From an uncultured Actinomycetota bacterium (lineage in GTDB: Bacteria; Actinomycetota; Actinomycetes; DATJPE01), in assembly GCA_963805505.1 (NCBI GenBank), contig CAWDUP010000002.1:700493-764492 (forward strand): 64,000 nt of DNA, read 5' to 3'. Positions 14,036-44,638 of the stretch are shown here, in pieces. The position numbers were made by a program, and so were the translations under genes. Under the pieces are notes generated by a model. That model searched no databases, was not told the origin of the DNA, and saw only the letters and a list, made by a program, of their open reading frames with translations. The stretch's first letter is position 1. Every line of letters begins with the position of its first letter.

Positions 14036-14064
14036 ATGTCGGCGCGCTGAGCGCTGGTCTTGAG
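14036..14064 (-). promoter_or_regulatory. Sigma-28 (FliA/WhiG)-type promoter of the pilin-like/NlpC cassette
   Basis: CTCAAG-N15-GCCGACAT, 8 nt before the ATG. Confidence 0.65.
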
Positions 14065-14084
14065 CCAGGTGCGTGTCCTGCCGA

Positions 14085-15791
14085 CTAGCGGCGAAGCCTG
14101 CCGCCGACCAGATCCATGAGCTCAGAGACCTCGGCCACACGCATGCGCAGGGCGACCGCGATGAACGTGACTGCTCCGAGGACCAAGCCGACCATGGCCT
14201 GGGCGAAGGCTGCAGCGTTCGACGTCCCGAGCGCGGTCGTCAGGAGCGTCGCTGCCAGGTAGGCGGGGATGCAGGCGATCACCGAGGCGACCAGAACCCG
14301 CACCAGGGTCTGCACGGTCCGCCTGGTGGCCAGCCCGCCAAGCCGCCGCCCGAGTCGGCGCCAGGTCACGACGGCCGTGCATGCGTAGGCGAGGGAGTAG
14401 CCCAGCGCCAGGGCGGGCACCTTGAACGGGACGGGCGACAAGACGTACAGACCGAGGGCGAACACCGCATTGAGCACATTCAGGACGAGGTTGAGGAAGA
14501 ACGGGGTGCGGGTGTCCTCGAAGGCGAAATAGCCGCGGAGCGCAAGGTAGAAGACGGTGAACGGAACAAGACCGAGCGCGAACATCTGGACGACGAGCCC
14601 GATCTGACCAGCCTCGGCTCGGCTGGTGTTGCCGTAGGCCGTGAGCACCTGGGTGATCCGTGGGCCGAGCACGAGGAGGGCGGCTGCTGTCGGGACGACG
14701 AACGCCGACGCAGTGCGCAATCCGCGCGCGACGTCCGCGGCGACCCCCGCCCGATCGCCCGCGTGAGCCGCAGCGGACATCCGCGGGAGCAGCGCCGCGG
14801 CAAGGGAGACCGTCACCACGCTGTGCGGGAGGATGAACAACAGGTGGGCTCGCATATAGCTGGTGAGTCCGGTGGAGAGCTCGCCGCCGTCCTGGGCCGC
14901 GATGTTTGCCGCGTTGGCCAGGTTGACGATGACCAGGTAGGTGAGCTGGTTGACCGCGACAAAGGCGATCGTCCAGCGGGCCAGCCGCCAGGCGTGGCCC
15001 AGGCCGTGGCCGCGAAAGTCGAAGCGTGGACGCCAGTGGTAGCCCACGCGCCAGGCGAAGGGGATCAGTACGGCGGCCTGCAGGGCGACACCCAGCGTGG
15101 CTCCGACCCCGAGCAAGGCGATTTCCGAAGAGCTGATGGTTGCGGTCGTTGGATCGACTCCGGCGGCCCGCAGGAACAGCAGCGCTGCCGCGGACATCAC
15201 GACGTTGTTCACCACCGGGGCGTAGGCCGGGGCGGCGAACGACCCACGGCTGTTCAGCACCTGGGTCAGCATCGTGAAGACGCCGTAGAACAGGATCTGG
15301 GGGAGGCAATATCGCGCGAAGGCCGCCGAGACCTCCAGATCGGTGGCCGAGAACGATCGCGCATAGAGGCTCACGATCCATGGAGCCAGGACGACGGCCA
15401 TCGCCGAGATCCCCAGGAGCACCAGCCCCACCAACGTCAACAGGCGGTCCGCGTAGCCGTTCCCCCCGTCCGCATCGGTGCGCGCATGTCGCACCAGCTG
15501 CGGGACGAACACCGCATTGAGGGCGCCTCCGACCGCCAGGATGTAGATGATGTTGGGCAGCGTGTTGGCCGTTGAGAATGTGTCGGCGAGAACGCCCACC
15601 CCGAGCGCCGCGCTGATGAGCATGTCGCGGACGACCCCGCTGACCCGCGACACGATCGTGCCGATCGCCATGCCCCCGCTGGATCGCAGGACGCCCGCCT
15701 GCACGCCTGCTACCGCATCGGTCTCAGCATCGGCCTGAGCGCCGGCCTGCGGATCTCGCTCCGGGCCGACGACATCACCGTCGTGGGTCAC
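14085..15791 (-). CDS. murJ: Lipid II flippase MurJ (MviN)
   Basis: MAIGTIVSRVSG, ANTLPNIIY, GGALNAVFVPQLV, DTRTPF; multi-TM. Confidence 0.94.
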   Translation of the reverse strand: MTHDGDVVGPERDPQAGAQADAETDAVAGVQAGVLRSSGGMAIGTIVSRVSGVVRDMLISAALGVGVLADTFSTANTLPNIIYILAVGGALNAVFVPQLVRHARTDADGGNGYADRLLTLVGLVLLGISAMAVVLAPWIVSLYARSFSATDLEVSAAFARYCLPQILFYGVFTMLTQVLNSRGSFAAPAYAPVVNNVVMSAAALLFLRAAGVDPTTATISSSEIALLGVGATLGVALQAAVLIPFAWRVGYHWRPRFDFRGHGLGHAWRLARWTIAFVAVNQLTYLVIVNLANAANIAAQDGGELSTGLTSYMRAHLLFILPHSVVTVSLAAALLPRMSAAAHAGDRAGVAADVARGLRTASAFVVPTAAALLVLGPRITQVLTAYGNTSRAEAGQIGLVVQMFALGLVPFTVFYLALRGYFAFEDTRTPFFLNLVLNVLNAVFALGLYVLSPVPFKVPALALGYSLAYACTAVVTWRRLGRRLGGLATRRTVQTLVRVLVASVIACIPAYLAATLLTTALGTSNAAAFAQAMVGLVLGAVTFIAVALRMRVAEVSELMDLVGGRLRR

Positions 15792-17878
15792 GAGGTGAGG
15801 GTCTCACCGTCAGAGGTCCCCGCCGCCCTGATCCGGCGCGCCACGCGGACGACCACCGCGATCGCCAGGAGCACCAATGCTCCACCCACGACGATTCGGG
15901 CTACCTGGCCGTACCCGGTCGCGCGGACGGTGAACTCCACCGAGTCGCCGAGGGGTTGACCCGTAGCGCTCAGCAGCGTTGCTACGACTGGGAAGCGCGC
16001 GTTCGCGGCGGCCTCTGCGGTGACGTTGACCGTGGCAGTACGGCCGGCTGGAACGGTGATCAGCTCCGAGGGACGGCTGGTCAGGCGGACCGACGGGATC
16101 GACCGGAGACTGACCCGGACGGTCACGTCCTGGTCGAGGTCGTTGTGCACAGCCAAGGGGATGACGCCCGTGTTGCTGGACAGCGTGACCTGCCCGCGCT
16201 CCAGCAGGCGCACTGACGTGACGTCTGCGGTGACCGCGCGGGTGAGGTTGGCGGTGTAGGCGCGTCCCGCGGATCGCCCCTTCCCCCGCCAGGCGGTGGA
16301 CTGTGCACTCAGCAGCGCCGGTTCGTAGGCCGAGACGAACGGTTCGGGAAAGGCGAGCGCCGGCGCGAAAGCCGCTACCCGCTCGCGATCTCTGGCAACG
16401 ACCGCGAGCTGGCTGGCCGAGACCTCGGCCAGCCGATCGGCCTTCGTGTACCGCTCGGTCGTCCGTTCGGGCGCGTCACTGGGAGCCGCCGCCAGCTCGG
16501 CGAGGGTCTGGTTGGTGAGCCATGGCGCTTGCAGACCCAGGACGGTGGTGGTCCAGCCCGGACTGGCCTTCCAGCGTCGTGGGGGTGCGACCGCGATTCC
16601 CCGGGGGTCGCTCGGGCGCTCTGCGGCGATCAGCGCGGTCTCGGCGAGCAGTCGTTGCTTGGCAAGGACGGGACCTCCGAGGCTGCCGGGGCCGGCGTCG
16701 AGCAGGGCTGCGAGCGTGGCGTCGGACGTCACGACCGGTAGGTCAGGTAGGTCGACCAGAGTGGTCATCGAGTCAGGGGTCCCGGAAAGCTCGGTCTGGG
16801 GGACCAGCCCGGAAGCGCTGAGCAGGACCGACCCAAAACCTTGAGCGGCGAGGCTCCGGAGGGTCGCTCGGTTGGACAAGCCCGACCCCGGCCAGGCGGG
16901 GGCCTCCTGCAGCTCACCGCCGAGCAGCTCGCCCGCGATGCGCTTCCCGAGGTTTCTGGCGGTGGCTAGGTCGCCCCCGAGCCCGGCTCGCTGGCTGGCG
17001 ACCAGATCCGGATCCGCGTAGGGAACGACTTCGACATCGGATCCCGCGCGGGCTCGCTCGGCCGCCAAGGCCGCTAACCAGCTGGCCGCGGTTGGATCCG
17101 GTTGTGCGCCAGCGGCAAGATCGCGGCCGGTCGCGAGGCTCCGGACGTCCTCGAGCAGGGCAGCGTCGACCAGGAACGTGACCGCCCGTCCACTGCCCGC
17201 GGCGAGCAAGGCCCCAAGGCGGCCGTCGGGTTGCAACGCCGCAGCGAGCTTCGTGGCTGCCTCAACCGGGAGGATGCCATTGGCGAGCCGTCCGGGCGTG
17301 CCGATCAAGGGGACGAACCAGGTGACCTGCACCTGAGGCGTCTCGCCCGGACCGTCAGTGACCAAGAACGTCCGCGCCGAGCCGGCGGTCCGACGCACAC
17401 CGGTTGGCTCGGCGACCCTGAGCTCGAGGGTCAAGGCGTGGACGCCGAACCCTGGGATCAGCCCGAGCTGATCGGCAGGAACCTCGATCCGAACCTGTGC
17501 GCTCGCTCCTGGCGCCAATGTCGGCGCGACGTCCACCAGCGAGGCGACCGGTACGGTCCCGACCGGCACCAGCGAGTCGCCGCCGATGAAAGCCGCCAGC
17601 TCCGCGCGCGAGGTGAGCGGGAGCGAGCCGACGCGCAGGCGCGCGCCCACGGCGACCAGGGTCTGATCGGAGGCGTTGATGACGCGAGCGCTCAAAACGA
17701 GGTTGCCTGCCGGGTCGAGCAGGGTAGGTGCCAACTCGGTCACGGTGACCCGGATGTCGTCGCCCGAGGGATCCTCGGCGCCACGGTCGAGGCCGTGGGC
17801 GGCCGACGTAGTCAGCAGGAGCCCGCACATCGAGATGGTCGCCGCAGCAAGGGCGGCCGCCGCGCGTCCCAGATTCAC
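15788..17878 (-). CDS. DUF6049-type secreted/membrane-anchored protein
   Basis: Signal peptide, PYADPDL motif, C-terminal TM; conserved position between NUDIX and murJ. Confidence 0.75.
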
Positions 17879-18372
17879 GCGCTCTCGCTGAGCAGGGCAA
17901 CCGCCTTGGTGACCAAGGCTCGTTCGTCGGCGTAGGCAAGGCGTCGGTTGACCTCGTCCAGTGGCACCCAGGCGACCTCGACCACTTCGATGTCGGCATC
18001 GCTGAGCTCGCCGCCCACCGCCTCCAGAAGGTGATGGTGGACGGTCTTGTGCACCCGCCGGTCCTCGGCCACGAACCAGAAGTCGATCTGGCCCAGCGAT
18101 GCCAGGATGCGCCCCTCGATGCCGGTTTCTTCGCGCACCTCACGGACGGCGGCGTCCTCGGCCGTCTCTCCCGCCTCGACGTGTCCTTTGGGGAGGGACC
18201 AGATCAACCGACCTCGGCGGTCGTGGCGCGCGATCAACGCTGCCTGCTCGTGTCCAGGCGCGCGACGGTCGACCACGAGACCCCCGGCGGAAGTCTCCTC
18301 GACGGTCCGCAGGCGTGGGCGGGGTCGAGGAGTGCGCGGCGGTTCTGGTGCGGGATGCGCACGGTCGACCAT
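17875..18372 (-). CDS. NUDIX hydrolase
   Basis: Nudix box [24 protein letters not shown]; start ATG 18372. Confidence 0.92.
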
Positions 18373-18415
18373 CCAGCCAGGGTAGCCATGGCGGGAAGTT
18401 CCTAGACTGACCACC

Positions 18416-19864
18416 ATGCCCACCCCGGAGGCCGCCGCACCCTCGCGTCCGCAGACCTTGTCCGAGGCGCAGCGCCGGGCCGTGCACGAACTGCTTCGGG
18501 TTGCACCGGTCGCGGACCATCTGGGAAGGCTCTTCGAGAGCGCCGGTCACCACCTGGCCCTGGTGGGCGGGAGCGTGCGCGATGCGCTCCTTGGCCGGCT
18601 GGGCAACGACTTGGACTTCACCACGGACGCCCGGCCTGAAGAGATTCTGCGGCTGGTCAAGCCGTGGGCTGACGCCGTGTGGGAGGTCGGCATCGCCTTC
18701 GGGACGGTGGGCGCCCGCAAGGACGATTTCACTATCGAGATCACCACCTACCGCGCCGAGACCTATGAGACCGGCTCACGTAAGCCCGAGGTGACCTACG
18801 GCAAGAGCCTTGAAGGCGACCTGCTCCGGCGCGACTTCACGGTCAACGCCATGGCCGTTCGCCTGCCGGGCACGCAGTTCGTGGATCCGCACGGGGGTCT
18901 CGAAGACCTCGCGAACGGGTCTCTGCGAACGCCGGGACGGCCCGGCGACTCGTTCTCCGACGATCCGCTGCGAATGATGCGGGCGGCCCGGTTCGCCGCG
19001 CAGCTCGGCTTCGAGGTCGCGGCCGACGTGGTCGACGCGATCGAGGCCATGGCCGAGCGCATCGACATCGTCAGCGCCGAGCGGATCCGCGACGAGCTGG
19101 TCAAGCTCATGCTGAGCCCGGATCCGCGAGCCGGACTGGCCCTGCTCGTGGACACGGGGTTGGCGGACCGCGTCCTTCCCGAGCTGCCCCGGCTGCGCCT
19201 GGAGATCGATGAGCATCATCGCCACAAGGACGTCTACGAACACACCCTGACCGTGGTCGAACAAGCGATCGCTCTCGAGCCGGGCGAACCCGATTTCGTG
19301 CTCCGCTTCGCGGCGCTCATGCACGATGTAGGCAAGCCGAAGACCCGACGGTTCGAGCCCGGCGGTGGCGTGAGCTTCCACCACCATGAGGTCGTCGGCG
19401 CCAAGCTCACCCGCAAGCGGATGACGACCCTGCGATTCAGCAACGAGATCATCGACGCGGTCAGTGGCCTCGTCGCTTTGCACCTTCGCTTCCATGGGTA
19501 CGGCTCCGGTGAGTGGACGGACTCCGCAGTCCGGCGCTATGTGCGCGACGCCGGCCCGCTCCTCGAACGGCTGCATGTCCTGACTCGCGCCGACTGCACG
19601 ACGCGCAACCGCCGAAAGGCGTTGATTTTGTCGGCCACCTACGACGACCTCGAGGAGCGCATCGAACGGCTGGGTGCAGAGGAGGAGCTCGCGTCCTTGC
19701 GGCCAGACCTAGACGGGTCCCAGATCATGGAGATCCTCGAGATCCCCCCCGGACCGCTCGTCGGAGAGGCCTACCGTTTCCTTCTCGACCTGCGGCTCGA
19801 CCGTGGGCCGATGCCAGCCGAGGAGGCCGAGCGTGAGCTGCGCACCTGGTACTCCTCGAGATAG
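18416..19864 (+). CDS. pcnA: CCA tRNA nucleotidyltransferase with HD domain
   Basis: [41 protein letters not shown]. Confidence 0.93.
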
Positions 19865-19874
19865 ATCGTGGCGC

Positions 19875-21170
19875 TCACGGTCGCGACTGCGCGGTCCGGC
19901 GTGAGATCCACACGTATCCACCCAAGCCCAGCAGCCAGCACCCCACCGCGATCCAGACCACTCCGGCCGAGCGTCCGTTCGCCGGCAGCACCAAGGCGGC
20001 GATCAACCCGCCAACCACGAAGGTGAGGTTGAACACGACGTCGTAGACGGCAAACACCCGTCCCCGATAGACGTCCTCGAGCTCCTGCTGGACCAAGGTG
20101 TCAGCGCTGATCTTGACGACCTGACCCGCCGCCGTGGCGAGGAAAGCGACCGCGAACAGCGTGGCCTGGGTGAACTGCAGTCCCAGCACCAGCTCGCCAA
20201 CCGCCGCGCTGCCCAATGCGGTGGAGATGACCGGCGGCGTCCCCCAGCGCCGTACGAGCGGCGGCGCCACCAGCGCCGCCGCAAAGACCCCGATCCCGCC
20301 GAAGAAGAACGCAGTACCCAAAGCGCTGAGCCCGGCGTCGGGGTCATCAGGTGCGTTGTAGGTCTCCCGGAACAACAGCACGCCCCCCACGGTCACGATG
20401 CCCCAGCCGAACCGGAAGGCACCCAGCGCCGCGATCGCCGACGCTGCTCGCGGGCGTTCCCGAAGGTGCGCGAGCCCTTCGACGAACCCTCGGGTGACCG
20501 ACGTCACCGCTGCCCGCACGGCGGCCGTGGCCTCGTCCAGGGCGGGGCCAAGCTGAGCTCGATCGAGGCCCAGCGCGGCCAGCGCGCCCGCCAGGGCATA
20601 TCCGAGTGCTGCGACCGTGACGACGAGAGCGACCCTGGTGTCCGACCCGCCGCCGAGCAGGCGGACGACGACTCCGAGGCCCACCCCGGCCACCGTCGAC
20701 AAGGTGCCGATCGTGGTTGACACCGCATTGGCCGTGATGAGCACCCCGTCCGGGACGACCCGGGGCAGTGCTGCGGAAAGCCCGGACAGGATGAAGCGGT
20801 TGACGCCGATCACGGCCAACGACACGGCGAGGAACGCCGCGTCGTCACGACCACCGAGGACGAGTCCCGCCACGCCTAGGCACAAGACTGCGCGGCCTAG
20901 GTTGGCGGCGACCAGGACGCGCTGCCGGCTCCACCGGTCGAGCAGCACTCCTGCGAACGGGCCGAGGAGTGAGTAGGGCACCAAGATGACGGCGAAGGCC
21001 AGCGCGATGCGCAGCGCCGACGTCTGACGCTCGGGGGAGAAGAAGACGAAGGACGCCAGAGCCGCCTGGAAGCAACCGTCGGACACCTGCCCGGCCACGC
21101 GAACCGACAGCAGACGTCGGAAACCCGTGCCCCTGAACAGGGCAACGACTGGCCGTTCGGTCGTCCTCAG
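19875..21170 (-). CDS. MFS transporter (start ambiguous: CTG 21170 or GTG 21098)
   Basis: FRRLLSVRVAGQVSDG N-terminal motif, GPFAGVLLDRWSRQR motif A, about 12 TM. Confidence 0.85.
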   Translation of the reverse strand: MRTTERPVVALFRGTGFRRLLSVRVAGQVSDGCFQAALASFVFFSPERQTSALRIALAFAVILVPYSLLGPFAGVLLDRWSRQRVLVAANLGRAVLCLGVAGLVLGGRDDAAFLAVSLAVIGVNRFILSGLSAALPRVVPDGVLITANAVSTTIGTLSTVAGVGLGVVVRLLGGGSDTRVALVVTVAALGYALAGALAALGLDRAQLGPALDEATAAVRAAVTSVTRGFVEGLAHLRERPRAASAIAALGAFRFGWGIVTVGGVLLFRETYNAPDDPDAGLSALGTAFFFGGIGVFAAALVAPPLVRRWGTPPVISTALGSAAVGELVLGLQFTQATLFAVAFLATAAGQVVKISADTLVQQELEDVYRGRVFAVYDVVFNLTFVVGGLIAALVLPANGRSAGVVWIAVGCWLLGLGGYVWISRRTAQSRP

Positions 21171-21194
21171 GGCCGACCCGCGGCGCTCGCCTGG

Positions 21195-22565
21195 TCAGGC
21201 AAGCGCCGGCTCCGGCGTGGTGCCGTGGTCTGCGGGGGGCGGGGACAGCTTCGCCCGTGCTGCCGGGCTTGCGGCCGCCAGGATGTCGATGAGGAGCCAG
21301 GCCACGGCGGCAGCCGACACCGACCACACGACGTTCTGCCAGGTGGCGTGGCCACCGAGGATGAAGACGACGATGACGATGACGAGCACGGCGGTGCGAA
21401 GCGCCATCCGGCCTTTGGCTACCACGCGACCCAGCCGCTGCATGGGCTCCCAGCGACCTGCCGTCTCTCCCAGCGCCGAGGTCGCGCGGGACTCGAGGTC
21501 GCGCAACCAGCCTGCTGGCTGGGACGGTCCGGCCAGCCAGGCGAAGAAGGCGGCGACGATGCCGAGCGCGGCGAGGGCCCCCAGCGAGTCCCAGAGATAG
21601 CGCAGCATCGTGTCGTAGAACACGGTAAGTGCGGCACCGAACGTTGTGTCGTTGGTGGCGTCGACGTAGGCCGATCGGGCGATCCCCAGGGCGGCCGCGA
21701 GCAGGATCATCGCGGCCACCACGACGAGCCCGCTGATCAGCAGCATGCGCCGGCGTTGCGGGGCCACCATGATGGCGGCGAGATAGAGCAGGAAGACCAC
21801 GGGCAGCAGCCACCTGGCGATGGGGTCGGTGAACGTCCACACCTGTTGTGCCGCATCCAGCTGCGGTGAGGTGAGCAGGACGATCTCGTGCCCGGTCGCT
21901 GCCGGTGGGTTGACCCGCTCGAAGACGGTGAGGCCGCGATCGATGAGGGCCTGGCGTACGGCTTCGATCACGACTGACAAGTCGAGATAGACGGTGCCGT
22001 CTCGGACCGTCACTGTCCCTGTCGTGTCGCCCTCGAGAGCCTGGACCACACCCTGCTGCACCTGCGTGTTCACCTGGATCCACAGGTTGTCGAAGGCCTG
22101 GCTGGACACGATCTTGAGAACGGTGGACTGCACGAAGCTGGTGATCGCCCCGGTGATGGCGGGCGTCAGGGGCGCTGCCTCCGGTGGCAGGTTCGTCGTG
22201 ACGAAACCCTGGAGGTCGACGCGTGACAGCAGTTCGTCCGTGACCTCGGTCGCTACCGCCTGTTGGATGACTGCAGACTGAGCCAGCGGGCCGACCGTGG
22301 ACAGATAGCGCTGCGAGTCCACGATGGTGCGGCGCCCCCAGAAACCCACCAGGGCCGGGGGTGTGAGGAGGGCAGCGATCACCAGGAGGGCGACCGCCGC
22401 CGTCCAGCGCCAGCGTCGGTGCGCCGTGGGTGGCCGGTCGAGAACGAGGGTGGGCGAATCGTGCCGAAGGTGCTCGTTCTCATCGCGCAGCCGAGCGACC
22501 TCGGCCTCGAGCGCGGCGATGTCCGCAGGGTCGGGATCGGGTGCCTGTGCCTCGATGCCGGTCAT
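21195..22565 (-). CDS. Integral membrane protein with N-terminal coiled coil
   Basis: 456-aa ORF, AALEAEVARLRDENEHL coil, several TM helices. Confidence 0.75.
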   Translation of the reverse strand: MTGIEAQAPDPDPADIAALEAEVARLRDENEHLRHDSPTLVLDRPPTAHRRWRWTAAVALLVIAALLTPPALVGFWGRRTIVDSQRYLSTVGPLAQSAVIQQAVATEVTDELLSRVDLQGFVTTNLPPEAAPLTPAITGAITSFVQSTVLKIVSSQAFDNLWIQVNTQVQQGVVQALEGDTTGTVTVRDGTVYLDLSVVIEAVRQALIDRGLTVFERVNPPAATGHEIVLLTSPQLDAAQQVWTFTDPIARWLLPVVFLLYLAAIMVAPQRRRMLLISGLVVVAAMILLAAALGIARSAYVDATNDTTFGAALTVFYDTMLRYLWDSLGALAALGIVAAFFAWLAGPSQPAGWLRDLESRATSALGETAGRWEPMQRLGRVVAKGRMALRTAVLVIVIVVFILGGHATWQNVVWSVSAAAVAWLLIDILAAASPAARAKLSPPPADHGTTPEPALA

Positions 22566-22638
22566 GGGAGACCTCTCAAGCTGCGGACGACGGGTGCATT
22601 TCCGAGCGAGAGCCTAGGCGTCCGGCGCCAACAACACA

Positions 22639-22669
22639 GCGACTCCCCGGGATTGCCCCGGGGAGTCGC
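22639..22669 (-). terminator. Hairpin/terminator after ino1
   Basis: 13-bp perfect stem GCGACTCCCCGGG/CCCGGGGAGTCGC followed by TGTGTTGTT on the minus strand. Confidence 0.7.
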
Positions 22670-22677
22670 CAGTGGCT

Positions 22678-23748
22678 CTATTCGCCGGCGATGAAGTCCT
22701 CGACGGCTTGGCGCGCCTCGTCGTCGTTGTACTGCACGGGCGGGCTCTTCATGAAGTACGACGCCGGACCGAGCAAGGGTCCCCCGATACCGCGATCGAG
22801 CGCGATCTTGGCGCAGCGGATCGCGTCGATGATGACTCCGGCTGAGTTCGGGGAGTCCCAGACCTCGAGCTTGTACTCCAGGCTGAGCGGTACGTCGCCG
22901 AAGGCGCGGCCCTCGAGGCGGACGAAGGCCCACTTGCGGTCATCGAGCCATGCGACGTAGTCCGACGGACCGATGTGGACGTTGCGGGCGCCGATGTCAC
23001 GGGTGAGCTGGGAAGTGACCGACTGGGTCTTGGAGATCTTCTTGGACTCCAGGCGCTCACGCTCCAGCATGTTCATGAAGTCCATGTTGCCGCCGACGTT
23101 GAGCTGATAGGTGCGGTCAACGGTGACGCCTCGGTCCTCGAAGAGCTTGGCGAGGACGCGGTGGGTGATCGTGGCGCCGACCTGGCTCTTGATGTCGTCT
23201 CCGACGATCGGCACGCCGGCCGCGGTGAACTTGTCGGCCCACGCCTTGGTCCCTGCGATGAAGACCGGCAGGGCGTTCACGAAGCCGACTCCGGCATCGA
23301 TGGCGCACTGGGCGTAGAACTTGGCAGCTTCCTCGGACCCGACCGGCAGGTAGCACACCAAGACGTCAACCCGTGCCTCGCGGAGCGCGGCGACCACGTC
23401 GACCGGTTCGTCGTCGGACTCGGTGATCGTCTCGCGGTAGTACTTCCCGAGGCCGTCGAGGGTGTGGCCGCGCTGGACCGTCACGCCGGTCGGCGGCACC
23501 TCGGCGATCTTGATCGTGTTGTTCTCCGAGGCGCCGATGGCGTCGGACAGGTCGTGACCCACCTTCTTGGCGTCGACATCGAAGGCGGCCACGAACGTGA
23601 CATCACCGACGTGATAGTCGCCGAGCTGGACGTGCATCAGTCCCGGGACCTTGGCAGTGGTGTCGGCGTCCTTGTAGTACTCGACGCCCTGGACGAGCGA
23701 CGCGGCGCAGTTGCCGACGCCGACGATGGCTACTCGAACCTGACCCAT
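22678..23748 (-). CDS. ino1: Myo-inositol-1-phosphate synthase
   Basis: [33 protein letters not shown]. Confidence 0.96.
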
Positions 23749-23754
23749 GTCCGG

Positions 23755-33961: not shown

Positions 33962-33968
33962 ACGTGAC

Positions 33969-37158: not shown

Positions 37159-37184
37159 CCCATCGGAGAGGAAGTGACGACACC

Positions 37185-37673
37185 GTGTCGGTTGAACTCG
37201 AGGCTCTCCTCGATTCACTTGACGGGCGGCGCAGGCATGTCCTGACCGCCGTAGAGGGCCTTGGGGAGTCCGACCTGAGACGGCCGGTGCTGCCGTCGGG
37301 ATGGAGTTGTCTCGGGCTCGTTCAGCACCTCACGGTCGACGTCGAGACCTTCTGGTTCCGCTGCGTCGTCGCGGGAGATCGGCCCGCCATCGATGCCCTC
37401 GGTGACGAGAGCGGTTGGGCGGTCGACCCCGATCGCAGCTCCGCGCAGATCCTTGACGCCTACCGGCTCGAGACCGCGGAGGCTGACCGTCTCGTCCGGG
37501 CGGCTGGACTGGACGCCGCCCCCCTGTGGTGGCCGGACTTCTTCGGTTCGTTTCGGCTGGAGTCGGTGCGCGAAGTGGCGCTCCATGTGCTGACCGAGAC
37601 GGCCACCCATGCCGGTCACCTCGATGTGGTCCGCGAGCTGCTCGACGGCCGACAGCATCTCGTGCTCACCTGA
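37185..37673 (+). CDS. DinB/DUF664-family protein
   Basis: PSGWSCLGLVQHL..VE..WF, HVLTETATHAGHLD. Confidence 0.85.
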   Translation: MSVELEALLDSLDGRRRHVLTAVEGLGESDLRRPVLPSGWSCLGLVQHLTVDVETFWFRCVVAGDRPAIDALGDESGWAVDPDRSSAQILDAYRLETAEADRLVRAAGLDAAPLWWPDFFGSFRLESVREVALHVLTETATHAGHLDVVRELLDGRQHLVLT

Positions 37674-37809
37674 GCTGACCGGCGGGCTGGACGACCCAGC
37701 AGGCGGCCCTGGGTGAGCCGGCGATCCGCGCTGCGGGCTCCTCGGCCGCGGAGGATGGCACGATGGCTGGGCGCTGCCGACTGGAACAACGAGTGAGTGA
37801 GGAATTCGC

Positions 37810-38607
37810 GTGGCCGCACCCGTCTTGGTGACCGGAGGCACCGGTGTCCTGGGCCGGCGCGTGGTCGACCAGCTGCTCGCTCGAGGGTCGCACGTGCGCG
37901 TCATGAGTCGAAACGCCCAGGCCCCTCGAGACGGCGTCGAGCAGGTCGTCGCCGACCTGAGCACCGGAGACGGTGCCGAGGCGAGCCTGCGTGACGTCGA
38001 GACGATCGTGCACTGCGCGGGCAGCGCGAAGGGTGACGACGACAAGGCGCGCAACCTGATCCGAGCCGTCCCCTCCGGTACGGCGCCGCACGTGGTCTTC
38101 ATCTCCATCGTCGGAGTCGATCGGATCCCGGTCAGCAGCATGGCCGATCGCGCGATGTTCGGCTTCTATGCAACCAAGTTCGCCGCCGAGAGAGTTGTGG
38201 CCGACTCCGGACTGCCATGGACAACGGTGCGCACGACCCAGTTCCACGACTTGCTGCTCACCATGGTGCAAGAGATGGCCAAGGTGCCTGTGGTGCCGCT
38301 TCCCAGTGGCTTCCGCTTCCAACCGATCGATGTGGACGAAGTGGCGGGCCGCCTTGTCGAGCTCGCCCTGAGCGGGCCGGCCGGTCGGGTCCCCGATCTC
38401 GGAGGCCCGCAGATCTTGTCCATCAAGGAGCTGGTCAGCAGCTATCTGCGGGTCACTCATCGCCGGCGCCCGATGCTCCCGATCCGGTTGCCGGGCAAGG
38501 CTGCCAAGGCCTACCGGGAAGGTGCCAACCTGGCGCCCGAGCACGCAGTCGGCGCACTCACCTGGGAAGGATTTCTGGCCACCCGGGTGCGCCGCGTAGG
38601 TGGCTGA
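37810..38607 (+). CDS. Atypical SDR / NAD(P)H-binding oxidoreductase
   Basis: VLVTGGTGVLG, ISIVG, YATK, RTTQFH, FQPID. Confidence 0.88.
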   Translation: MAAPVLVTGGTGVLGRRVVDQLLARGSHVRVMSRNAQAPRDGVEQVVADLSTGDGAEASLRDVETIVHCAGSAKGDDDKARNLIRAVPSGTAPHVVFISIVGVDRIPVSSMADRAMFGFYATKFAAERVVADSGLPWTTVRTTQFHDLLLTMVQEMAKVPVVPLPSGFRFQPIDVDEVAGRLVELALSGPAGRVPDLGGPQILSIKELVSSYLRVTHRRRPMLPIRLPGKAAKAYREGANLAPEHAVGALTWEGFLATRVRRVGG

Positions 38608-38632
38608 GGTCGTCCGGCCGGGCAAGGCTGGA

Positions 38633-39175
38633 CTACCAGACGTCCCCCGAACGCCAGTCGCAGGCCAGGTCGCCGTCAAGGTCGAGAGCCACTGTGTCGT
38701 CGGCACGCTGGAGGACGTAGACCGAACCGTCCTCGTCGGGGGTGGGCCGTAATCCCTGGGGCGTGAGCACCGACGTCGTACCACGCCAAGCCGTCCAGCC
38801 GCGGGCGACGTAGAGCTCGGCGGCCATCTTCGAGGCGGACAACGCTCCCAGGTGATACGCCGCCCTGATGACCCGCTCGCTCTCGTCCATCAGCGAAGTG
38901 AACAGCCCACGTCGCCGGAAGTCCGGGCGTACGCCGACACCCTCCACATAGCCAACGCGCAGCACGCGGTGTGCGTGCAACAGCCCTCGCTGGACGACAG
39001 CTGCATGGCCGACCAGCTCGCCCCCGTCCCAGATCATGGCGTGGATGCCACCCAGGGCGTGCTCGAGGTCGTCATCGCTGAAGCGGTCGCCGAAGGCTTG
39101 GTCAAGGAGCGGCCGGATGGCCCGCAGCTCCTTGGGTCTGAGATCAGCGGTGTGCAGGGTACGCAGGTCGGTCAC
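38633..39175 (-). CDS. Aminoglycoside 2'-N-acetyltransferase-like GNAT (AAC(2')-I family)
   Basis: HTADL, FSDDDLEHALGG, HAAVVQR, GYVEGVGVR, CDWRSGDVW C-terminus; start GTG 39175. Confidence 0.85.
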   Translation of the reverse strand: MTDLRTLHTADLRPKELRAIRPLLDQAFGDRFSDDDLEHALGGIHAMIWDGGELVGHAAVVQRGLLHAHRVLRVGYVEGVGVRPDFRRRGLFTSLMDESERVIRAAYHLGALSASKMAAELYVARGWTAWRGTTSVLTPQGLRPTPDEDGSVYVLQRADDTVALDLDGDLACDWRSGDVW

Positions 39176-39224
39176 GCCAAAAGTGTCGCGCACCGACAGG
39201 CATGCAGGTCGTACGGTGTCGTTC

Positions 39225-40049
39225 GTGACCGACTACCGAGCCGTCAACCGGCTGAGCTGGGACGAGCGTGCGCCGGCGCACGCGGCATCGCCGGACTACT
39301 CCTGGGACGAGTTCGTCGCTGACCCGGAGTTCCTGAGCGGCGTCGTCAGGTTCGACCTGCCGCGCCTCGGTGACATCGCGGGGCTGCGCGGGGTGCACCT
39401 GCAGTGCCACATCGGCACGGACACGCTGTCCTTGGCCAGACTGGGTGCCGAGATGATTGGCCTGGACTTCTCGTCGGCCGCCATCGAGCAGGCCCGTCGG
39501 CTTTCCGCGGAGGCGGGGCCGCACGTCGACTTCGTGGAGTCAGACCTCTATTCCGCCCTAGACGTCCTCGAGGGCGGTTCCTTCGATCTGGTGTTCACCG
39601 GGATCGGGGCGCTGTGCTGGCTGCCAGACGTCCGGCGTTGGGCCGAGATCGTTGCGGCGCTGCTGGCCCCCGGTGGGCGATTGTTCATCCGGGAGGGCCA
39701 TCCCATGCTCTGGGCCCTCGAAGACAGTCGGGAGGACGGTCTGCTCGTCGTTGGGTATCCCTACTTCGAGACGGCGGAGCCGCAGATCTTCGACGAGGAC
39801 GGCACCTACGTCGAGACCGACGTCACGTTTCGGCACAACGTCACTCACTCCTGGAACCACGGGTTGGGCGAGATCGTGACAGCTCTGCTCGACGAGGGGC
39901 TGACGCTGACCATGCTCGAGGAGCACGACAGCGTCCCGTGGGATGCCCAACCCGGCTTGATGACCCGAGACGAGCTCGGCGAATATCGCTTCACCGTCGG
40001 CCCCGATCGGGTGGCCGCCAGCTACACCCTGCAGGCCGTACGTCGCTGA
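39225..40049 (+). CDS. Class I SAM-dependent methyltransferase
   Basis: NRLSWDERA, HLQCHIGTDTLSL, GLDFS, GALCWLPD; start GTG 39225. Confidence 0.88.
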   Translation: MTDYRAVNRLSWDERAPAHAASPDYSWDEFVADPEFLSGVVRFDLPRLGDIAGLRGVHLQCHIGTDTLSLARLGAEMIGLDFSSAAIEQARRLSAEAGPHVDFVESDLYSALDVLEGGSFDLVFTGIGALCWLPDVRRWAEIVAALLAPGGRLFIREGHPMLWALEDSREDGLLVVGYPYFETAEPQIFDEDGTYVETDVTFRHNVTHSWNHGLGEIVTALLDEGLTLTMLEEHDSVPWDAQPGLMTRDELGEYRFTVGPDRVAASYTLQAVRR

Positions 40050-40075
40050 CACTGGCAGGTCTCGGGGCTTGCTGA

Positions 40076-40885
40076 TCACCGACCGAGGAAAGCCTGGAGG
40101 GCGTCGGCGAAGGCGACTGCCTCGGACTGCCGGAAGGCCTTCGACCTCATCCGTCTGGCGTCGGTGGCGTTGCGCATGTTGCCCGTCTCCACCAGCACGG
40201 CGGGGACGGTGGCCAGATTGAGGGTCGCCAGGTCCTTGCGGTAGATCAACGCGTCTCCGCCCCCCGCGTAGTTGGCGTAAGGCATGCCCGTCACCCGGTG
40301 GAACTTCCCGCGCACGACCTTGGCCAGGTGATGCGATCGCCTGGTGACCCCGGCACCCTTCAGCTGATGGGTCGACGCGATCACGGTGAATCCGCGGGCG
40401 CCGGGTGCGGTCGAGCCGTCGGCATGAATCGACAACATGGCGTCCGCGTGGAAGCGGGTGGCGGTGGCAGCGCGCACCGGAGTGCAAGGTCCGACGCCGG
40501 AGTTGCTGTGGCGGGTGAGGTGAACAGTTGCCCCGCGAAGTCTCAGAACGGCCGCAGTGCGCTTGGCGACATCCCACGTGTAGGCGGCCTCGGTGTAGCC
40601 GCCGTTTGTCGCTGTTCCCGTGGTGTTGCAAGCCTTGTAGACACCGTTGCCCGCAAAGATCGTCCGGTTGATGATCTCCGGGTGCGCCCAGTTGCGGCCG
40701 TTGTGTCCCGGATCGATGACGATGACGACGCCAGTCATCGCCAACGTCGGCTCGGCTGGTGGGGGGCCAACGAACGCGCACAGGCTCAGCGCGACGGTGG
40801 CCGTGGCCAGCCCGACCAGCAGCCGACGAGCCCGGCCCCGAGATGAGTGCGACGGCCCGACGACGGCGGAGACTGGTGATGTCAT
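40076..40885 (-). CDS. Secreted N-acetylmuramoyl-L-alanine amidase (Amidase_3)
   Basis: Signal peptide, IDPGHNG, TE, SIHAD, LVETGNMRN. Confidence 0.9.
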   Translation of the reverse strand: MTSPVSAVVGPSHSSRGRARRLLVGLATATVALSLCAFVGPPPAEPTLAMTGVVIVIDPGHNGRNWAHPEIINRTIFAGNGVYKACNTTGTATNGGYTEAAYTWDVAKRTAAVLRLRGATVHLTRHSNSGVGPCTPVRAATATRFHADAMLSIHADGSTAPGARGFTVIASTHQLKGAGVTRRSHHLAKVVRGKFHRVTGMPYANYAGGGDALIYRKDLATLNLATVPAVLVETGNMRNATDARRMRSKAFRQSEAVAFADALQAFLGR

Positions 40886-40921
40886 CCCGACCAGACTACG
40901 GCGGCGCTTGTACGCGGGCGG

Positions 40922-42313
40922 TCAGTGGACCGACTCGAGCGTGGTGCCCTTGGTCTCCTTGATCATCTTGAGCACGAAGAAGAACGAGCCGATGGCGGCC
41001 GCGGTGTAGATGCCATAGGCCAGGGACAGCGATACACCGGACAAGGTCGGGAAGGTCGTGGACACGACGAAGTTCGCGATCCATTGAGCTGCAGCCGCCA
41101 CTGCGAGCGCTGCCGCGCGGATGCTGTTGGGGAACATCTCGCCGAGCAGCACCCAGACGACCGGGCCCCAGGAGAACGCGAAGAAGAACACGAAGACGTT
41201 CGCCGCGAGCAGCGCGACAGTGGCAGCGGTGTGGCTGAGCGCGGGACTGTCGTTCACGATCGGGGCGTTGCCGAAGACGTAGGTCAAGGTGCCTAGTCCC
41301 ACGATCATCCCCAGCGAGCCCACCAGCAGCAGGGGGCGTCTGCCCACCTTGTCGATGATGGAGATGGCCAGCACGGTTCCGGCGATGTTGACCAGGGCGC
41401 TGATGATCGAGATGAGCAGGGACTGGTCCTCGCCGATTCCCACGCTCTGCCAAAGGACCGAGGAGTAGTAGAAGATCACGTTGATGCCGACGAGTTGTTG
41501 GAACGCGCTCAGCACGATTCCGACCCAGACCACGGGCAGCAGCCCGAAGCGTGGTCCACGCAGGTCGGAGAAGACCGGCTTGTGCTCGGCATCGATCGAG
41601 GCCTGGATCGACGCCAGCAGCGGGCGTACGTCCCCGTCGTTGACCTGCTCGAGAACCTCCAGCGCCTCCTCGCTACGGGCTTGCGCCACGAGCCAGCGCG
41701 GCGACTCCGGGATGCGTAGGGCCATCAGGCCGTAGATGAGGGCAGGAAGCGCCTCGATCATCAGCATCCATCGCCAGGCGCTCAGGCCCCAGAGCTGGCT
41801 GCTCGCCGAGCCGGCCATGCGGACGATGACGTAGTTGACGATCTGGCTGATCGCGATGCCCAGGACGATGGCCATCTGTTGAAGTGATCCGAGGCGTCCG
41901 CGCAGCGCGGGAGGTGCTATCTCGGCTATGTAGGCAGGGGCGATGACGGAGGCCACACCGATGGCGCATCCGCCGAGCATCCGCCAGATGATGAGATCGG
42001 TGACCCCGAACGACAGACCGGAGCCGATCCCGCTGACGAAGAACAGCGCGGCTGCAACGACCATGACCTTGACGCGACCATGCACATCCGCGAGCGCGCC
42101 TGCTGACCAAGCGCCCACCGCCGCCCCGAGGAGTGCGGACGACACGACGAAGCCGGTCAGCCCAGAACCGATCCCGAACTGCTGCTGGATGGCGTCGACC
42201 GCACCGTTGATGACGGCGCTGTCGTAGCCGAAGAGGAAACCACCCATCGCCGCCGTGGCAGCGAGTGACACGACCCGACGCGTGCTCGAACGACCCTCGG
42301 TGGCCATCGTCAT
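40922..42313 (-). CDS. Sugar porter MFS (GlcP-like)
   Basis: GGFLFGYDSAVINGA, PESPRWL, FQQLVGINVIFYY, ETKG. Confidence 0.93.
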   Translation of the reverse strand: MTMATEGRSSTRRVVSLAATAAMGGFLFGYDSAVINGAVDAIQQQFGIGSGLTGFVVSSALLGAAVGAWSAGALADVHGRVKVMVVAAALFFVSGIGSGLSFGVTDLIIWRMLGGCAIGVASVIAPAYIAEIAPPALRGRLGSLQQMAIVLGIAISQIVNYVIVRMAGSASSQLWGLSAWRWMLMIEALPALIYGLMALRIPESPRWLVAQARSEEALEVLEQVNDGDVRPLLASIQASIDAEHKPVFSDLRGPRFGLLPVVWVGIVLSAFQQLVGINVIFYYSSVLWQSVGIGEDQSLLISIISALVNIAGTVLAISIIDKVGRRPLLLVGSLGMIVGLGTLTYVFGNAPIVNDSPALSHTAATVALLAANVFVFFFAFSWGPVVWVLLGEMFPNSIRAAALAVAAAAQWIANFVVSTTFPTLSGVSLSLAYGIYTAAAIGSFFFVLKMIKETKGTTLESVH

Positions 42314-42362
42314 GCCCGCAGGCTAGGGCCTGCGAGGTCGAAGGGAACCGGCTTTGAGCGGG

Positions 42363-43247
42363 CTAGTCGTGGTTGGCCGCGGCCAGCGTCGCGACCTGAG
42401 CAGAAGTCAGCTGCGAGGACCAGATGGCCACCTCGTCGAGGGTCCCCGTGGGGACCGGGGCGGCGGCGCTGAGCGCCGGCCAGAGGTTGAGGTTGTCCCA
42501 ACCCACCCGCCAGTAGCCGGTAAAGCCTTGCTCGCCCTGGGTGACGCCGGGGTTCACATCGGTTTGGAGCACTCCATCCACGTAGAGCCGCATCCCAGCC
42601 GCGCCGAGAGTTGCCGCGATGTGGTGGCGACCCCCGGTGATCGGCGCATTGCTGCGAATCGTCGTCGCGCTGCCGGTCCAGATGCCGAAACGAAGGTAGC
42701 CGGCGTTGTCGAGGTACAGGTGGCGGTCGTAGCGCGAGGAAGAGCCGTTGGGCTGGTTGGAGAATCCGATCAGGCGTCCGTCGCCGCTGGACAGATTCGT
42801 CCACATGCTGAGGGTGAACTGGTCGGGTCCGTTGATGGCTGCCCCGCCGGTGCGTACCTGTGGTTGACCGGTCCCGTTCAGGGACAGGGCTGTCGAGCTG
42901 CTGCAGGCCAGGAGGCCGGGAGCACCCCACGTCAGACCGGCCCCCGCCGGTGTGGCGTTGGGCGGTCCAGCGGAGTCGACGACGCTGACGACCAGTCCCG
43001 TGTCGTCCAGTCGCAGGTAGTTGCGGGGTCCGCCTGCCATGGCCTGCACCGTGGCGGGATAGACGTTGGTGCCGCACCATGTGCCGGTCTTGAAGGTGCT
43101 GGACTTGACCGTGTCTGAGCTGGTAAACGCCGCAGCGGTCATTCCGGGGGCGTGAGCCAGGAAGGCGAGGCCGGCGATGAGCGCAGCCGCCGTGAGGCGT
43201 CGGTGCTGATCACGACGCGCGATATCACGCAGGAGAAGCGACGGCAT
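42363..43247 (-). CDS. LamG/concanavalin-like domain protein with SipW-type signal peptide
   Basis: AAAFTSSDTVKSSTFKTGTW N-terminal motif; LamG motifs YLRLDD, FTLSMW, HHIAATL, MRLYVDG, LDEVAIW; start ATG 43247 after AAGGAG. Confidence 0.82.
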   Translation of the reverse strand: MPSLLLRDIARRDQHRRLTAAALIAGLAFLAHAPGMTAAAFTSSDTVKSSTFKTGTWCGTNVYPATVQAMAGGPRNYLRLDDTGLVVSVVDSAGPPNATPAGAGLTWGAPGLLACSSSTALSLNGTGQPQVRTGGAAINGPDQFTLSMWTNLSSGDGRLIGFSNQPNGSSSRYDRHLYLDNAGYLRFGIWTGSATTIRSNAPITGGRHHIAATLGAAGMRLYVDGVLQTDVNPGVTQGEQGFTGYWRVGWDNLNLWPALSAAAPVPTGTLDEVAIWSSQLTSAQVATLAAANHD

Positions 43248-43863
43248 CGCGCTGCTCCTTCCCATCACGGGCCGAGGCGCCTGCAGCGGGTCGGCGGCGC
43301 CAGGACAGGAGCTCGGCGGTGAGGAGCAGGATGAGGGGTGGAGCGAAGACCAGGAATCGGCCCAGCGGCGAGTGGGCGTAGCCGAGGAAGTATCCCCAGC
43401 CGGGCTTCACGTCGGCGACCGCGCCGCGGACGTTGGCGACTGGTGTCAGGTCGGGGTCGGGCGAGCCGTTGCTGTCACCCTTGGTCCGGATGTATCGCGT
43501 GGTGGTGCCCAGGTCCTTGCCGTTCTCGAGGTCTTCGCGTTCGACGAGGTCGATGATCCGGTGAGTGGTGAGTGTGCTGTGTCCGGCATCCCAGAAGGTG
43601 ACGACCTGTCCGGTGCGCAGCTCGGTCGGGGCGATCGTGGTGATCACCACGGCATCCCCGGTGTTGAACTGCCCCGGCTGGACCGGCTGCCCGGGCTGGC
43701 GCTCCATCGACCCGCTCGTGACGACCAGGATCCGCTGACCGTGCACGTGGTACCAGAGGGGCAGGCCGTACGCGAACAGGGCAACACTCAAGGAGACGGC
43801 GAACACGAGGCGAAAGGTCCACCGTCGTGCTCGCCGTCCCCAGGAGATGCCTGCCGTGCTCAC
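43225..43863 (-). CDS. sipW: SipW-like (ER-type) signal peptidase I
   Basis: VVTSGSM (Ser), GDAVV, TTHRII (His in place of Lys), TKGDSN..PD; N- and C-terminal TM helices. Confidence 0.87.
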   Translation of the reverse strand: MSTAGISWGRRARRWTFRLVFAVSLSVALFAYGLPLWYHVHGQRILVVTSGSMERQPGQPVQPGQFNTGDAVVITTIAPTELRTGQVVTFWDAGHSTLTTHRIIDLVEREDLENGKDLGTTTRYIRTKGDSNGSPDPDLTPVANVRGAVADVKPGWGYFLGYAHSPLGRFLVFAPPLILLLTAELLSWRRRPAAGASARDGKEQRDAVASPA

Positions 43864-43882
43864 GAGGATCGCTCCGCTTCGG

Positions 43883-44527
43883 CTAGTTGTTCCGGGTCTG
43901 CTCGGCGTCGAACGTGAACGTCACCACGGTCGTCGCGGCCTGGAAAGCATTCCCCGTGCTCAGTGGGAGCGAGGCGACGACACAGAGGTCTTCGTTCGCA
44001 CCGGCACCCAGCGTGCGGTCGCCGGCCTGAGCCCCTTGGCTGACGCTGCCGAACAGGTCGTTGGCAGCACCGATCGGTCCAGGAACGTTGCTCACGACCA
44101 GGGTGCCACCCGGGTGGGCGCCGCCGGTGCACGCGGCAGCGTTGACACCGTCGTAGACCGAGAAGTCCAGCTGGTCGCGGAGGTTCTTGCCATCCGTGTT
44201 GTCGGCCGTGGCTGTCGCCGCGTAGCGCAGGCCGAGCGTTCCGGTGTTCTCCAGGTTGATGTTCCCGGAGACCGTGTCACCAGGAGCCATGTTGCCGGCG
44301 TTGAAACCCACGGTCGCTGGGCCGGCTGTCAGCTGGAGCGTTCCAGTGACGAAGCCGGCGCTGTCGACGGAGTCGCTGTCGGTGAACAGCGCGTTGGTCG
44401 TGAGACTGCCGAGCGCTACGAGCGAGAGCCCGGCGATGCCGAAGGCCGCGAAGAGCCGGCGACGGCGCTCCTTGTCCTCCGGGGTGTCCTGCCGAGGTCT
44501 TTCGAACTCAGCGAGCAAGTCGTCCAT
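43883..44527 (-). CDS. TasA/camelysin-family fibre subunit
   Basis: Basic-hydrophobic leader then TNALFTDSDS....F.TGTLQL; NMAPGD, NLENTGTLGLRY, GNAFQ, FTFDAEQ; start ATG 44527. Confidence 0.82.
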   Translation of the reverse strand: MDDLLAEFERPRQDTPEDKERRRRLFAAFGIAGLSLVALGSLTTNALFTDSDSVDSAGFVTGTLQLTAGPATVGFNAGNMAPGDTVSGNINLENTGTLGLRYAATATADNTDGKNLRDQLDFSVYDGVNAAACTGGAHPGGTLVVSNVPGPIGAANDLFGSVSQGAQAGDRTLGAGANEDLCVVASLPLSTGNAFQAATTVVTFTFDAEQTRNN

Positions 44528-44610
44528 GGTTGAAGTTCCTTCCCCCACAAGTCGGGATGACGTCGATGAACAGGTGGATCGCGCCGGGCGTGGTCTGACC
44601 CCCAGTTCTC

Positions 44611-44638
44611 CCATCGGCGGAGCCGGACGATCCCTTGA
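44611..44638 (-). promoter_or_regulatory. Sigma-28 (FliA/WhiG)-type promoter of the tasA-like operon
   Basis: TCAAG-N15-GCCGATGG about 85 nt upstream of the ATG. Confidence 0.62.

Follow-up and report, generated by a model that had tools for sequence, protein, structure and literature searches.

The question raised by this stretch of actinobacterial DNA is whether two separate gene cassettes, one encoding a TasA-like secreted protein and the other a small membrane protein together with a peptidoglycan endopeptidase, are switched on by the same sigma factor. The stretch analysed (the window) comprises 64,000 nucleotides (nt) of an uncultured Actinomycetota bacterium (G000:C2:700493-764492, GenBank contig CAWDUP010000002.1), whose genome of 3.07 Mb has 67.7% GC, 7 contigs and a completeness of 97.4%. 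Its nearest public relatives are metagenome-assembled genomes (MAGs) labelled uncultured Actinomycetota or Actinomycetes. A two-box motif stands in front of each cassette, here called site 1 (before the small-protein gene) and site 2 (before the tasA-like gene). Both sites are very probably promoters read by WhiG, the single sigma-28-family factor of this genome, which places the two cassettes in one regulon with pili.

Site 1 consists of CTCAAG, a 15-nt spacer and GCCGACAT, followed after 8 nt (ctactgac) by the ATG at 14027 of an open reading frame of 134 amino acids (aa). At site 2, the box TTCAAG is followed by GCCGATGG, and 83 nt lie between the latter and the ATG at 44527 of a gene with a PF12389 match. 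Each motif reads on the coding strand of the gene behind it, and the spacing is the same in both, just as a sequence-only reading of this DNA had described them. YTCAAG-N15-GCCGA occurs exactly twice in the window, at these two places; the mean in 100 dinucleotide-preserving shuffles of the window was 0.08 matches and none of the shuffles held two or more. A related match, TCAAG-N16-GCCGA, is located inside an extracytoplasmic function (ECF) sigma gene (10481-10506, minus strand), 143 nt before the next gene (9448-10338), and is probably there by chance.

The published actinobacterial WhiG consensus has a -35 box xT(C/A)Ax, a 16-nt spacer and a -10 box GCCGA according to the available text of PMC13595943, and a spacing of N16 for WhiG promoters vs N15 in the case of genuine flagellar sigma factors was reported in the accessible part of PMC7005675. 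Site 1 (CTCAA) and site 2 (TTCAA) satisfy the -35 rule and both read TCAA-N16-GCCGA. Since TCAAG-N15-GCCGA is the same as TCAA-N16-GCCGA, the match to the published consensus is exact.

The sequence-only reading had assigned both sites to a sigma-28 regulon, and when we searched the genome, one gene for such a factor was identified. The FliA/WhiG model TIGR02479 gave seven matches, one of them over the cut-off (284 bits vs 189.6) and the other six under it at 125 bits or less. The same locus passed the WhiG equivalog NF004935 (420.8 bits vs 343) and is located between xerC and an M23 peptidase gene. The anti-sigma factor RsiG was found as a 167-aa protein (C4:435286-435789) that matches PF22802 in two stretches (115.2 bits) and carries two E-x3-S-x2-R-x3-Q-x3-D motifs. 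A second RsiG-like paralogue (C2:521166-521645, L074) has one intact motif for cyclic di-GMP (c-di-GMP) and scored 55 bits with PF22802. No match to flagellin (PF00669) or FlhA (PF00771) was found in the genome.

Genes were called by a self-trained codon-usage scorer, which gave 2926 genes (90.7% coding) with approximate boundaries. In the intergenic DNA of the whole genome, TCAAG-Nx-GCCGA was found 7 times at x=15 and 5 times at x=16, and 0-3 times (mean 1.6) at 14 other spacings. The gene-oriented upstream regions (2078 regions, 293 kb) held 14 exact TCAAG-N16-CCGA sites, site 1 and site 2 among them, and 5 with N17; at 12 other spacings of TCAAG and CCGA the counts were 0-5 (mean 1.2). The looser form TCAA-N16-xxCGA gave 27 sites vs 2-9 at ten other spacings. 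Because this enrichment in upstream regions is specific to the spacing, the genome is estimated to hold roughly 14-20 promoters of WhiG type. A position weight matrix built from seed sites was dropped as circular, the seeds having been chosen on fixed bases.

Four WhiG-type sites were found in a type IV pilus cluster at 308-323 kb of contig C7 (G000:C7:308411-323073, L008), before genes for a PilT-like ATPase (529 aa), an N_methyl pilin and a Big_9/cadherin minor pilin (N16 variant) and before pilM. The cluster further holds pilB, pilC, pilD, pilN, pilO, a further pilin-like gene and a gene for a Ricin-lectin protein. Other motif sites precede the genes for a second PilT-like ATPase (C1:44669), CheB (C2:433162), two GGDEF-EAL proteins (C2:653351 and C1:208609, Pfam), a GGDEF protein (C7:1010712), a GAF-GGDEF protein (C2:171683) and a receiver-GAF protein (C4:135519). 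About 1 kb from rsiG, a gene for a 755-aa DUF4388 protein (C4:436822-439089, L078) has CTCAAC-N15-TGCCGATGG 66 nt upstream. The remaining genes with a motif site encode a CBM_4_9 protein, a GH18 protein and several proteins without a Pfam match. The genome-wide enrichment anticipated by the sequence-only reading was thus observed before pilus, chemotaxis and c-di-GMP genes, but the pilus genes are of type IV (pilBTCMNO, pilin, PilD) and are neither tad nor flagellar genes. These data fit the proposal of that reading that attachment or motility is governed by one sigma-28 regulon, with the sigma gene present, the motifs conserved (see below) and the enrichment lying before genes of these kinds. 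In the pilus cluster, the site before the pilin gene is 189 nt from the called start, and the start or leader of this pilin needs checking.

Orthologues of the 134-aa protein were detected in 34 of 61 relatives and in 114 of the 301 sampled genomes of the class; a separate search of genome contigs with this protein gave only two MAG loci. By family, presence was 20/20 in f17, 12/12 in f40 and 14/15 in f34; the protein was not found in f3, f29 and f39 (0/20 each), of which f29 is a WhiG-positive family with large genomes. The first 30 loci, from 21 families, were searched up to 150 nt upstream of the small-protein gene. The strict motif TCAAG-N15-[GT]CCGA was present in 26 and the published rule was satisfied in 29, three loci carrying GTCGA and the remaining one TGAAG-N15-GCCGATAC. 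Without three loci (L041, L047 and L054) from genomes flagged unpublished (G029, G037 and G041), the figures are 23/27 and 26/27. The other 199,080 bases of the 30 loci, on both strands, contained no strict match. In 15 further genomes fetched afterwards, 14 had the strict motif and all 15 satisfied the published rule, which brings the strict motif to 40/45 loci in more than 20 families. Across the 30 aligned sites C precedes TCAAG in 29, and every spacer column varies. Throughout the genus (six genomes), 7-8 nt separate the -10 box from the ATG and there is no Shine-Dalgarno sequence. As the -10 box of site 1 ends 8 nt before the ATG at 14027, its mRNA is probably leaderless. Elsewhere in the genome, the gene for a 138-aa protein without a Pfam match (C2:201036-201452, L076) has CTCAAC-N15-GGCCGACATA ending 10 nt before its start, and resembles site 1 in its near-leaderless layout and the same -10 tail (GCCGACAT).

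Matches to the tasA-like gene are less widespread, being present in 10 of the 61 relatives. TCAAG-N15-GCCGA was found 95-111 nt upstream of the tasA-like ATG in 7/7 genomes of family f1, and 77 nt upstream of the first of two tasA-like paralogues in G058, a genome of another family. Conservation upstream of orthologues, on which the sequence-only reading had made its proposal depend, was therefore observed at both sites.

The boxes could be real and conserved and yet be read by another sigma factor or by a DNA-binding regulator that recognizes two boxes. At 125 and 114 bits, below the cut-off, other sigma-70-family proteins of the genome partly resemble the FliA/WhiG model, and several ECF sigma factors are encoded as well, one of them in the window (10331-11005); the link of WhiG to the two sites is a prediction. 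However, the sequence, the 16-nt spacing and the gene-ward orientation are those of the WhiG consensus in the available text of PMC13595943 and PMC7005675, and the target set of type IV pili, GGDEF/EAL proteins and CheB is that of the WhiG regulons of Rubrobacter and other families, as far as the accessible part of PMC8325347 describes them. The site 1 cassette is also nearly confined to genomes with WhiG. When WhiG was scored at E<=1e-60, it was detected in 158 of the 301 genomes of the class sample and in 110 of the 114 genomes with the small protein, and 4 of the 143 genomes without WhiG carried the small protein, by counts tallied by eye from two tables that include the unpublished genomes G029, G037 and G048. 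Within the smaller set, 31/34 genomes with the small protein and 15/27 without it had a WhiG match over the cut-off. We therefore regard a different reader of the boxes as very unlikely.

Several observations weigh against control of both cassettes by WhiG. The -10 boxes of site 1 and site 2 end in CAT and TGG, and the canonical box ends in TAA. Apart from one outlier, the conservation of site 2 stops at a single family, and directly upstream of two distant tasA-like matches, L063 (the second paralogue) and L064, the motif is missing. WhiG was not detected in four of the genomes with the small protein: in two of them the small-protein match is marginal (E 3e-6 and 8e-7), and the other two are fragmented, with 430 and 570 contigs; one of the latter (G268) still has a strict site 1 promoter. 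The cassette is not universal in the presence of WhiG, being absent from 48 of the 158 WhiG-bearing genomes, including all 20 of f29, and related genomes are not independent samples. Finally, the leader of the tasA-like mRNA contains a conserved block that hints at further regulation.

This block, CCACGCCCGG (44593-44584, minus strand), is located about 20 nt downstream of the -10 box of site 2, in a leader that also holds the Shine-Dalgarno-like GGGGGAAGGA. Six of the 7 genomes of the family retain it and the seventh nearly so, in contrast to the variable promoter spacer. It may be an operator or an RNA element; an Rfam search of 44300-44800 gave no match at E<=1. Both sites could be WhiG-type promoters whose units are not co-expressed in practice, dominant extra control being exerted by a leader element or repressor at the tasA-like gene and by read-through from murJ at site 1. 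Besides CCACGCCCGG, further stretches of the 83-nt leader are conserved. Read-through is possible, given the distance of 20 nt between the murJ stop and site 1 and a terminator scan of 10800-14300 in which the two terminator-like sites detected were both on the plus strand; a sigma-70 promoter scan of the same segment found no promoter-like site. At site 2, a divergent aminotransferase gene on the plus strand has its called start (44669) 30 nt from the -35 box, so that both promoters must share a 141-nt intergenic region. Yet the retention of the site 1 boxes across more than 20 families argues for their use, and extra layers of control would leave the membership of both units in the regulon intact. 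We consider such uncoupling very unlikely.

That both matches are functionless chance similarities in GC-rich DNA is hardly credible: the motif has few fixed bases (5 + 5) and 16 of the 23 genome-wide matches to TCAAG-N15-GCCGA are inside genes, probably by chance, but the window held two matches where 0.08 were expected, the spacing peak in upstream regions is sharp, and this reading is effectively refuted because the boxes are invariant while the spacers drift in the orthologous regions compared (45 for site 1 and 8 for site 2).

With WhiG retained as the most probable reader of both sites, the genes that they precede can be considered. The positions of the promoter boxes and of the genes in the two cassettes are listed below.

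Coordinates (positions in the window) of the promoter elements and genes at site 1 and site 2
Feature	Position	Strand	Basis or remark
Site 1 -35 box CTCAAG	14064-14059	minus	window sequence; C-T-C-A-A-G kept in 29-30/30 orthologous upstream regions
Site 1 -10 box GCCGACAT	14043-14036	minus	CGA in 30/30, GC in 27/30 orthologous sites
murJ (lipid II flippase)	14085-15791	minus	PF03023, 303 bits; stop 20 nt before site 1 -35 box
134-aa small membrane protein, unnamed family	13623-14027	minus	first gene after site 1
Coiled-coil NlpC/P60 peptidoglycan endopeptidase, 367 aa	12497-13600	minus	22-nt gap after small-protein gene
472-aa protein, pseudokinase-like region and weak F5/8 type C domain	11043-12461	minus	35-nt gap
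Site 2 -35 box TTCAAG	44639-44634	minus	TCAAG invariant in 7-genome alignment A2
Site 2 -10 box GCCGATGG	44618-44611	minus	GCCGA invariant in alignment A2, 15-nt spacer varying
Probable 5' leader of tasA-like mRNA	44528-44610	minus	alignment A2
TasA/camelysin-like secreted protein, SipW-type signal peptide	43883-44527	minus	PF12389, 43.7 bits vs 22.5
SipW-type signal peptidase I	43225-43806	minus	TIGR02228, 67 bits vs 51.85; SipW model 54.9, cut-off 190
LamG-domain secreted protein	42363-43247	minus	PF13385, 68.7 bits; SipW-dependent signal model weak, 13.9 bits

The segment 11043-15791 is what we take to be the conserved actinobacterial neighbourhood in which Rv3910 of M. tuberculosis fuses MurJ to a pseudokinase. 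Here murJ and the gene for the pseudokinase-like/F5-8-C protein are separate, with the two-gene cassette between them. MurJ was encoded upstream of the small-protein gene in 13/13 relatives tested, and the NlpC/P60 gene was downstream of it in 17/23 loci tested; in the other six loci the next gene encodes a protein of 390-500 aa, and two of these proteins match a kinase model weakly. The small-protein gene is followed immediately by the pseudokinase-like gene in six relatives. Because the gap between them is 22 nt, the small-protein and NlpC/P60 genes are probably co-transcribed, and the 472-aa gene is a possible third gene of the unit. The 472-aa protein aligned at residues 4-159 with a PknB-type kinase model (44 bits, cut-off 450) and scored 21.4 bits, below the cut-off, with PF00754. 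Behind its gene, the ECF sigma gene, a possible anti-sigma gene, trxB, trxA and the gene for a CwlM-like amidase follow on the minus strand. This Amidase_3 enzyme (6660-7811) has PG_binding_1 domains and its gene lacks the motif.

The small membrane protein had been called pilin-like in the sequence-only reading. Its topology agrees with that name, but no prepilin motif and no Pfam or NCBIfam family could be assigned. Neither collection gave a match to the 134-aa sequence even at E<=1, and a prepilin leader was not detected by PF07963, PF07811 or PF13400 at the same threshold. An alignment of the family showed one transmembrane helix, a D/A-rich helix and an N-terminus (D/E)RG(S/D)xxxGWLTK with invariant G9 and G14; the residue five positions after G9 is thus an invariant G and not the E of the prepilin motif G/xxxxE. 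Its relatives bear the label 'hypothetical protein', apart from a few IMG records that say PilW or TadG; Quadrisphaera and Angustibacter are among the named organisms that carry them. NF041390 (TadE_Rv3655c) reached 13.4 bits for one orthologue. The AlphaFold2 model (predicted local distance difference test, pLDDT, 84) consists of a long helix (residues 3-61), a second helix and a small sheet. It gave no Foldseek match in the PDB at E<=0.001; in a wide search with VIA, an aminopeptidase subdomain came out on top (Z 8.1) and many type IV pilins followed at Z 4.7-6.1. Its neighbours in the ESM Atlas were unnamed actinobacterial clusters, some with PF13400 in 11% of the members and one with TadE in 78%. 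Membership in a pilin family was considered and found unsupported, given the missing prepilin motif and family match.

The second protein of the cassette was readily assigned to the NlpC/P60 family (PF00877, 90.7 bits), with a PcsB-type coiled coil (26.5 bits). Its catalytic residues C275 (in DCSG), H328 and H329 are intact and invariant in 15 orthologues. The best NCBIfam alignment was that of RipC, which covered residues 21-354 with 104.7 bits (cut-off 425), and RipA gave 61.5 bits (cut-off 625). An orthologous relationship to RipC or RipA was rejected, the architecture being alike and the scores lying below the equivalog cut-offs.

The gene downstream of site 2 encodes a protein of 214 residues, of which 32-114 are covered by the PF12389 match. 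It has a conserved signal region with RRRRL, a transmembrane segment and TNALFTD, and a conserved C-terminus FDAEQTxNN. The signal model TIGR04088 gave 13.7 bits (cut-off 19). The protein was not accepted as an orthologue of TasA, the NCBIfam TasA equivalog scoring 25.9 bits, far under the cut-off of 450. When the structural model (pLDDT 70) was compared by Foldseek, TasA of B. subtilis was the best match along the whole protein (5of2/5of1, E 1.9e-5 to 7e-5, 197-207 columns, TM score 0.35-0.47), which gives moderate support to a TasA-like jelly-roll fold. The N-terminus of the LamG protein encoded in the same operon resembles that of the TasA-like protein and was matched by tblastn with the tasA-like query. 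Two genes downstream of the operon lies a gene for another Amidase_3 cell-wall amidase (40076-40738), without the motif.

The data suggest the following scheme. RsiG bound to c-di-GMP would hold WhiG inactive, by analogy with Streptomyces and Rubrobacter. Once free, WhiG would direct RNA polymerase to the estimated 14-20 promoters of the form (C)TCAAG-N15/16-(G)CCGA. It would thereby drive four type IV pilus operons, the second PilT-like ATPase, CheB and at least five GGDEF/EAL-type or GAF regulators, and in addition the tasA-like/sipW/LamG fibre operon from site 2 and the murJ-linked unit of small membrane protein and NlpC/P60 endopeptidase from site 1. The GGDEF/EAL genes of the regulon itself would feed back on the c-di-GMP signal. 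As an outcome, surface behaviour based on pili would be coupled to the secretion of a TasA-like protein of a matrix or fibre and to the cleavage of peptidoglycan, the latter probably serving the separation of daughter cells. In this scheme the reading of the boxes by WhiG, the start positions, the sign of c-di-GMP control and the roles of both cassettes are what we infer.

The promoter itself is ordinary for this sigma family, and the type of regulon, WhiG driving pili together with c-di-GMP enzymes, is already described in the accessible parts of PMC8325347 and PMC13595943. In the latter, phylum-wide predicted WhiG regulons include c-di-GMP metabolism, chemotaxis and type IV pili (Denis et al. 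2026), the pili being predicted in Cellulomonadaceae, Sanguibacteraceae, Jonesiaceae and others. 'Peptidoglycan', 'MurJ' and TasA have no occurrence in the main text of that survey, whose Table S4 (131 clusters) gives only accessions and broad categories. The available published accounts of WhiG regulons do not name the tasA-sipW operon or the murJ-linked cassette as WhiG targets, and a prior listing among the accessions of Table S4 of PMC13595943 is possible. As far as the genus filter of the survey is described, it is unlikely that the present lineage, uncultured and with MAG-derived relatives, passed it. Among the matches listed in literature searches, none linked WhiG with NlpC and cell separation, and none on TasA, SipW or camelysin in Actinobacteria dealt with their regulation there. 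The candidate additions made here are the lineage-restricted tasA-sipW operon and the murJ-linked cassette, with its promoter across more than 20 families.

So far, the role of WhiG in actinobacteria without sporulation or swimming is understood only as far as type IV pili and c-di-GMP enzymes are concerned. The locus adds two candidate outputs, a TasA-like secreted fibre system and an endopeptidase cassette whose promoter is conserved far beyond the genus. Should these be confirmed, many Actinomycetes would use a sigma factor to place cell separation and matrix production under the control of c-di-GMP, and the unnamed small membrane protein would gain its first functional context. More tentatively, and with rather less than even confidence, the direct target of WhiG with the widest conservation outside Streptomyces might be the murJ-linked pair; the c-di-GMP/RsiG/WhiG pathway would then ancestrally control peptidoglycan cleavage together with pili, and the TasA-like operon would have been captured additionally in this lineage. 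If true, this would be an actinobacterial counterpart of the autolysins driven by sigma-D in Bacillus, and cell separation would be turned on jointly with matrix fibres, opposite to B. subtilis.

In B. subtilis, LytF is an NlpC/P60 enzyme, and the matrix operon tapA-sipW-tasA is on when the sigma-D programme is off. Unlike that operon, the tasA-like operon described here bears a sigma-28-type promoter itself. According to the available text of PMC3865298, SigD of B. subtilis controls flagella, motility and vegetative autolysins. In both organisms a sigma-28-family factor would thus link an organelle for motility to a cell-separating peptidoglycan hydrolase; the resemblance is in logic only, the organelle being a flagellum there (PMC3865298, as far as accessible) and a type IV pilus here.

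For the endopeptidase cassette the closest parallel is in Corynebacterium glutamicum, where RipA (Cg1735) is released by the membrane protein Cg1604 and RipC acts with FtsEX (Gaday et al. 2022, PMC9897464, in the part available). As with RipA, a coiled-coil NlpC/P60 endopeptidase is paired with a membrane-anchored partner. However, in that account (PMC9897464) the fold of Cg1604 is of a beta/alpha receiver-like type and its gene does not neighbour ripA, whereas the partner here combines a long helix with a small sheet and is always encoded next to its enzyme. On the model of RipA and Cg1604, the small membrane protein may anchor or unlock the endopeptidase.

Among WhiG systems, the survey in PMC13595943 agrees with our analysis, as far as its text was available, in consensus, search logic and functional themes. 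Streptomyces venezuelae shares the sigma family, the N16 spacing of the boxes and the type of RsiG anti-sigma factor, but its WhiG regulon consists of three sporulation genes, whiH, whiI and vnz15005, unlike that described here (Gallagher et al. 2020, PMC7005675, in its accessible part).

Rubrobacter radiotolerans was compared on the basis of the available part of PMC8325347 (Schumacher et al. 2021), in which its WhiG regulon comprises three pil promoters and five genes for diguanylate cyclases or phosphodiesterases (DGC/PDE). The tasA-sipW operon and the murJ-linked NlpC/P60 cassette are not among the targets named there. Its start sites were mapped, whereas the promoters here are predicted from sequence, and its -35 box is TAAA instead of TCAAG. 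Its anti-sigma complex is (RsiG)2-(c-di-GMP)2-WhiG with a one-motif RsiG, whereas the RsiG found here has two c-di-GMP motifs (monomer type). Both bacteria, however, are non-sporulating, unflagellated actinobacteria that encode WhiG and RsiG, and in both of them WhiG-type promoters occur in the type IV pilus cluster (three there and four here) and before several GGDEF/EAL genes.

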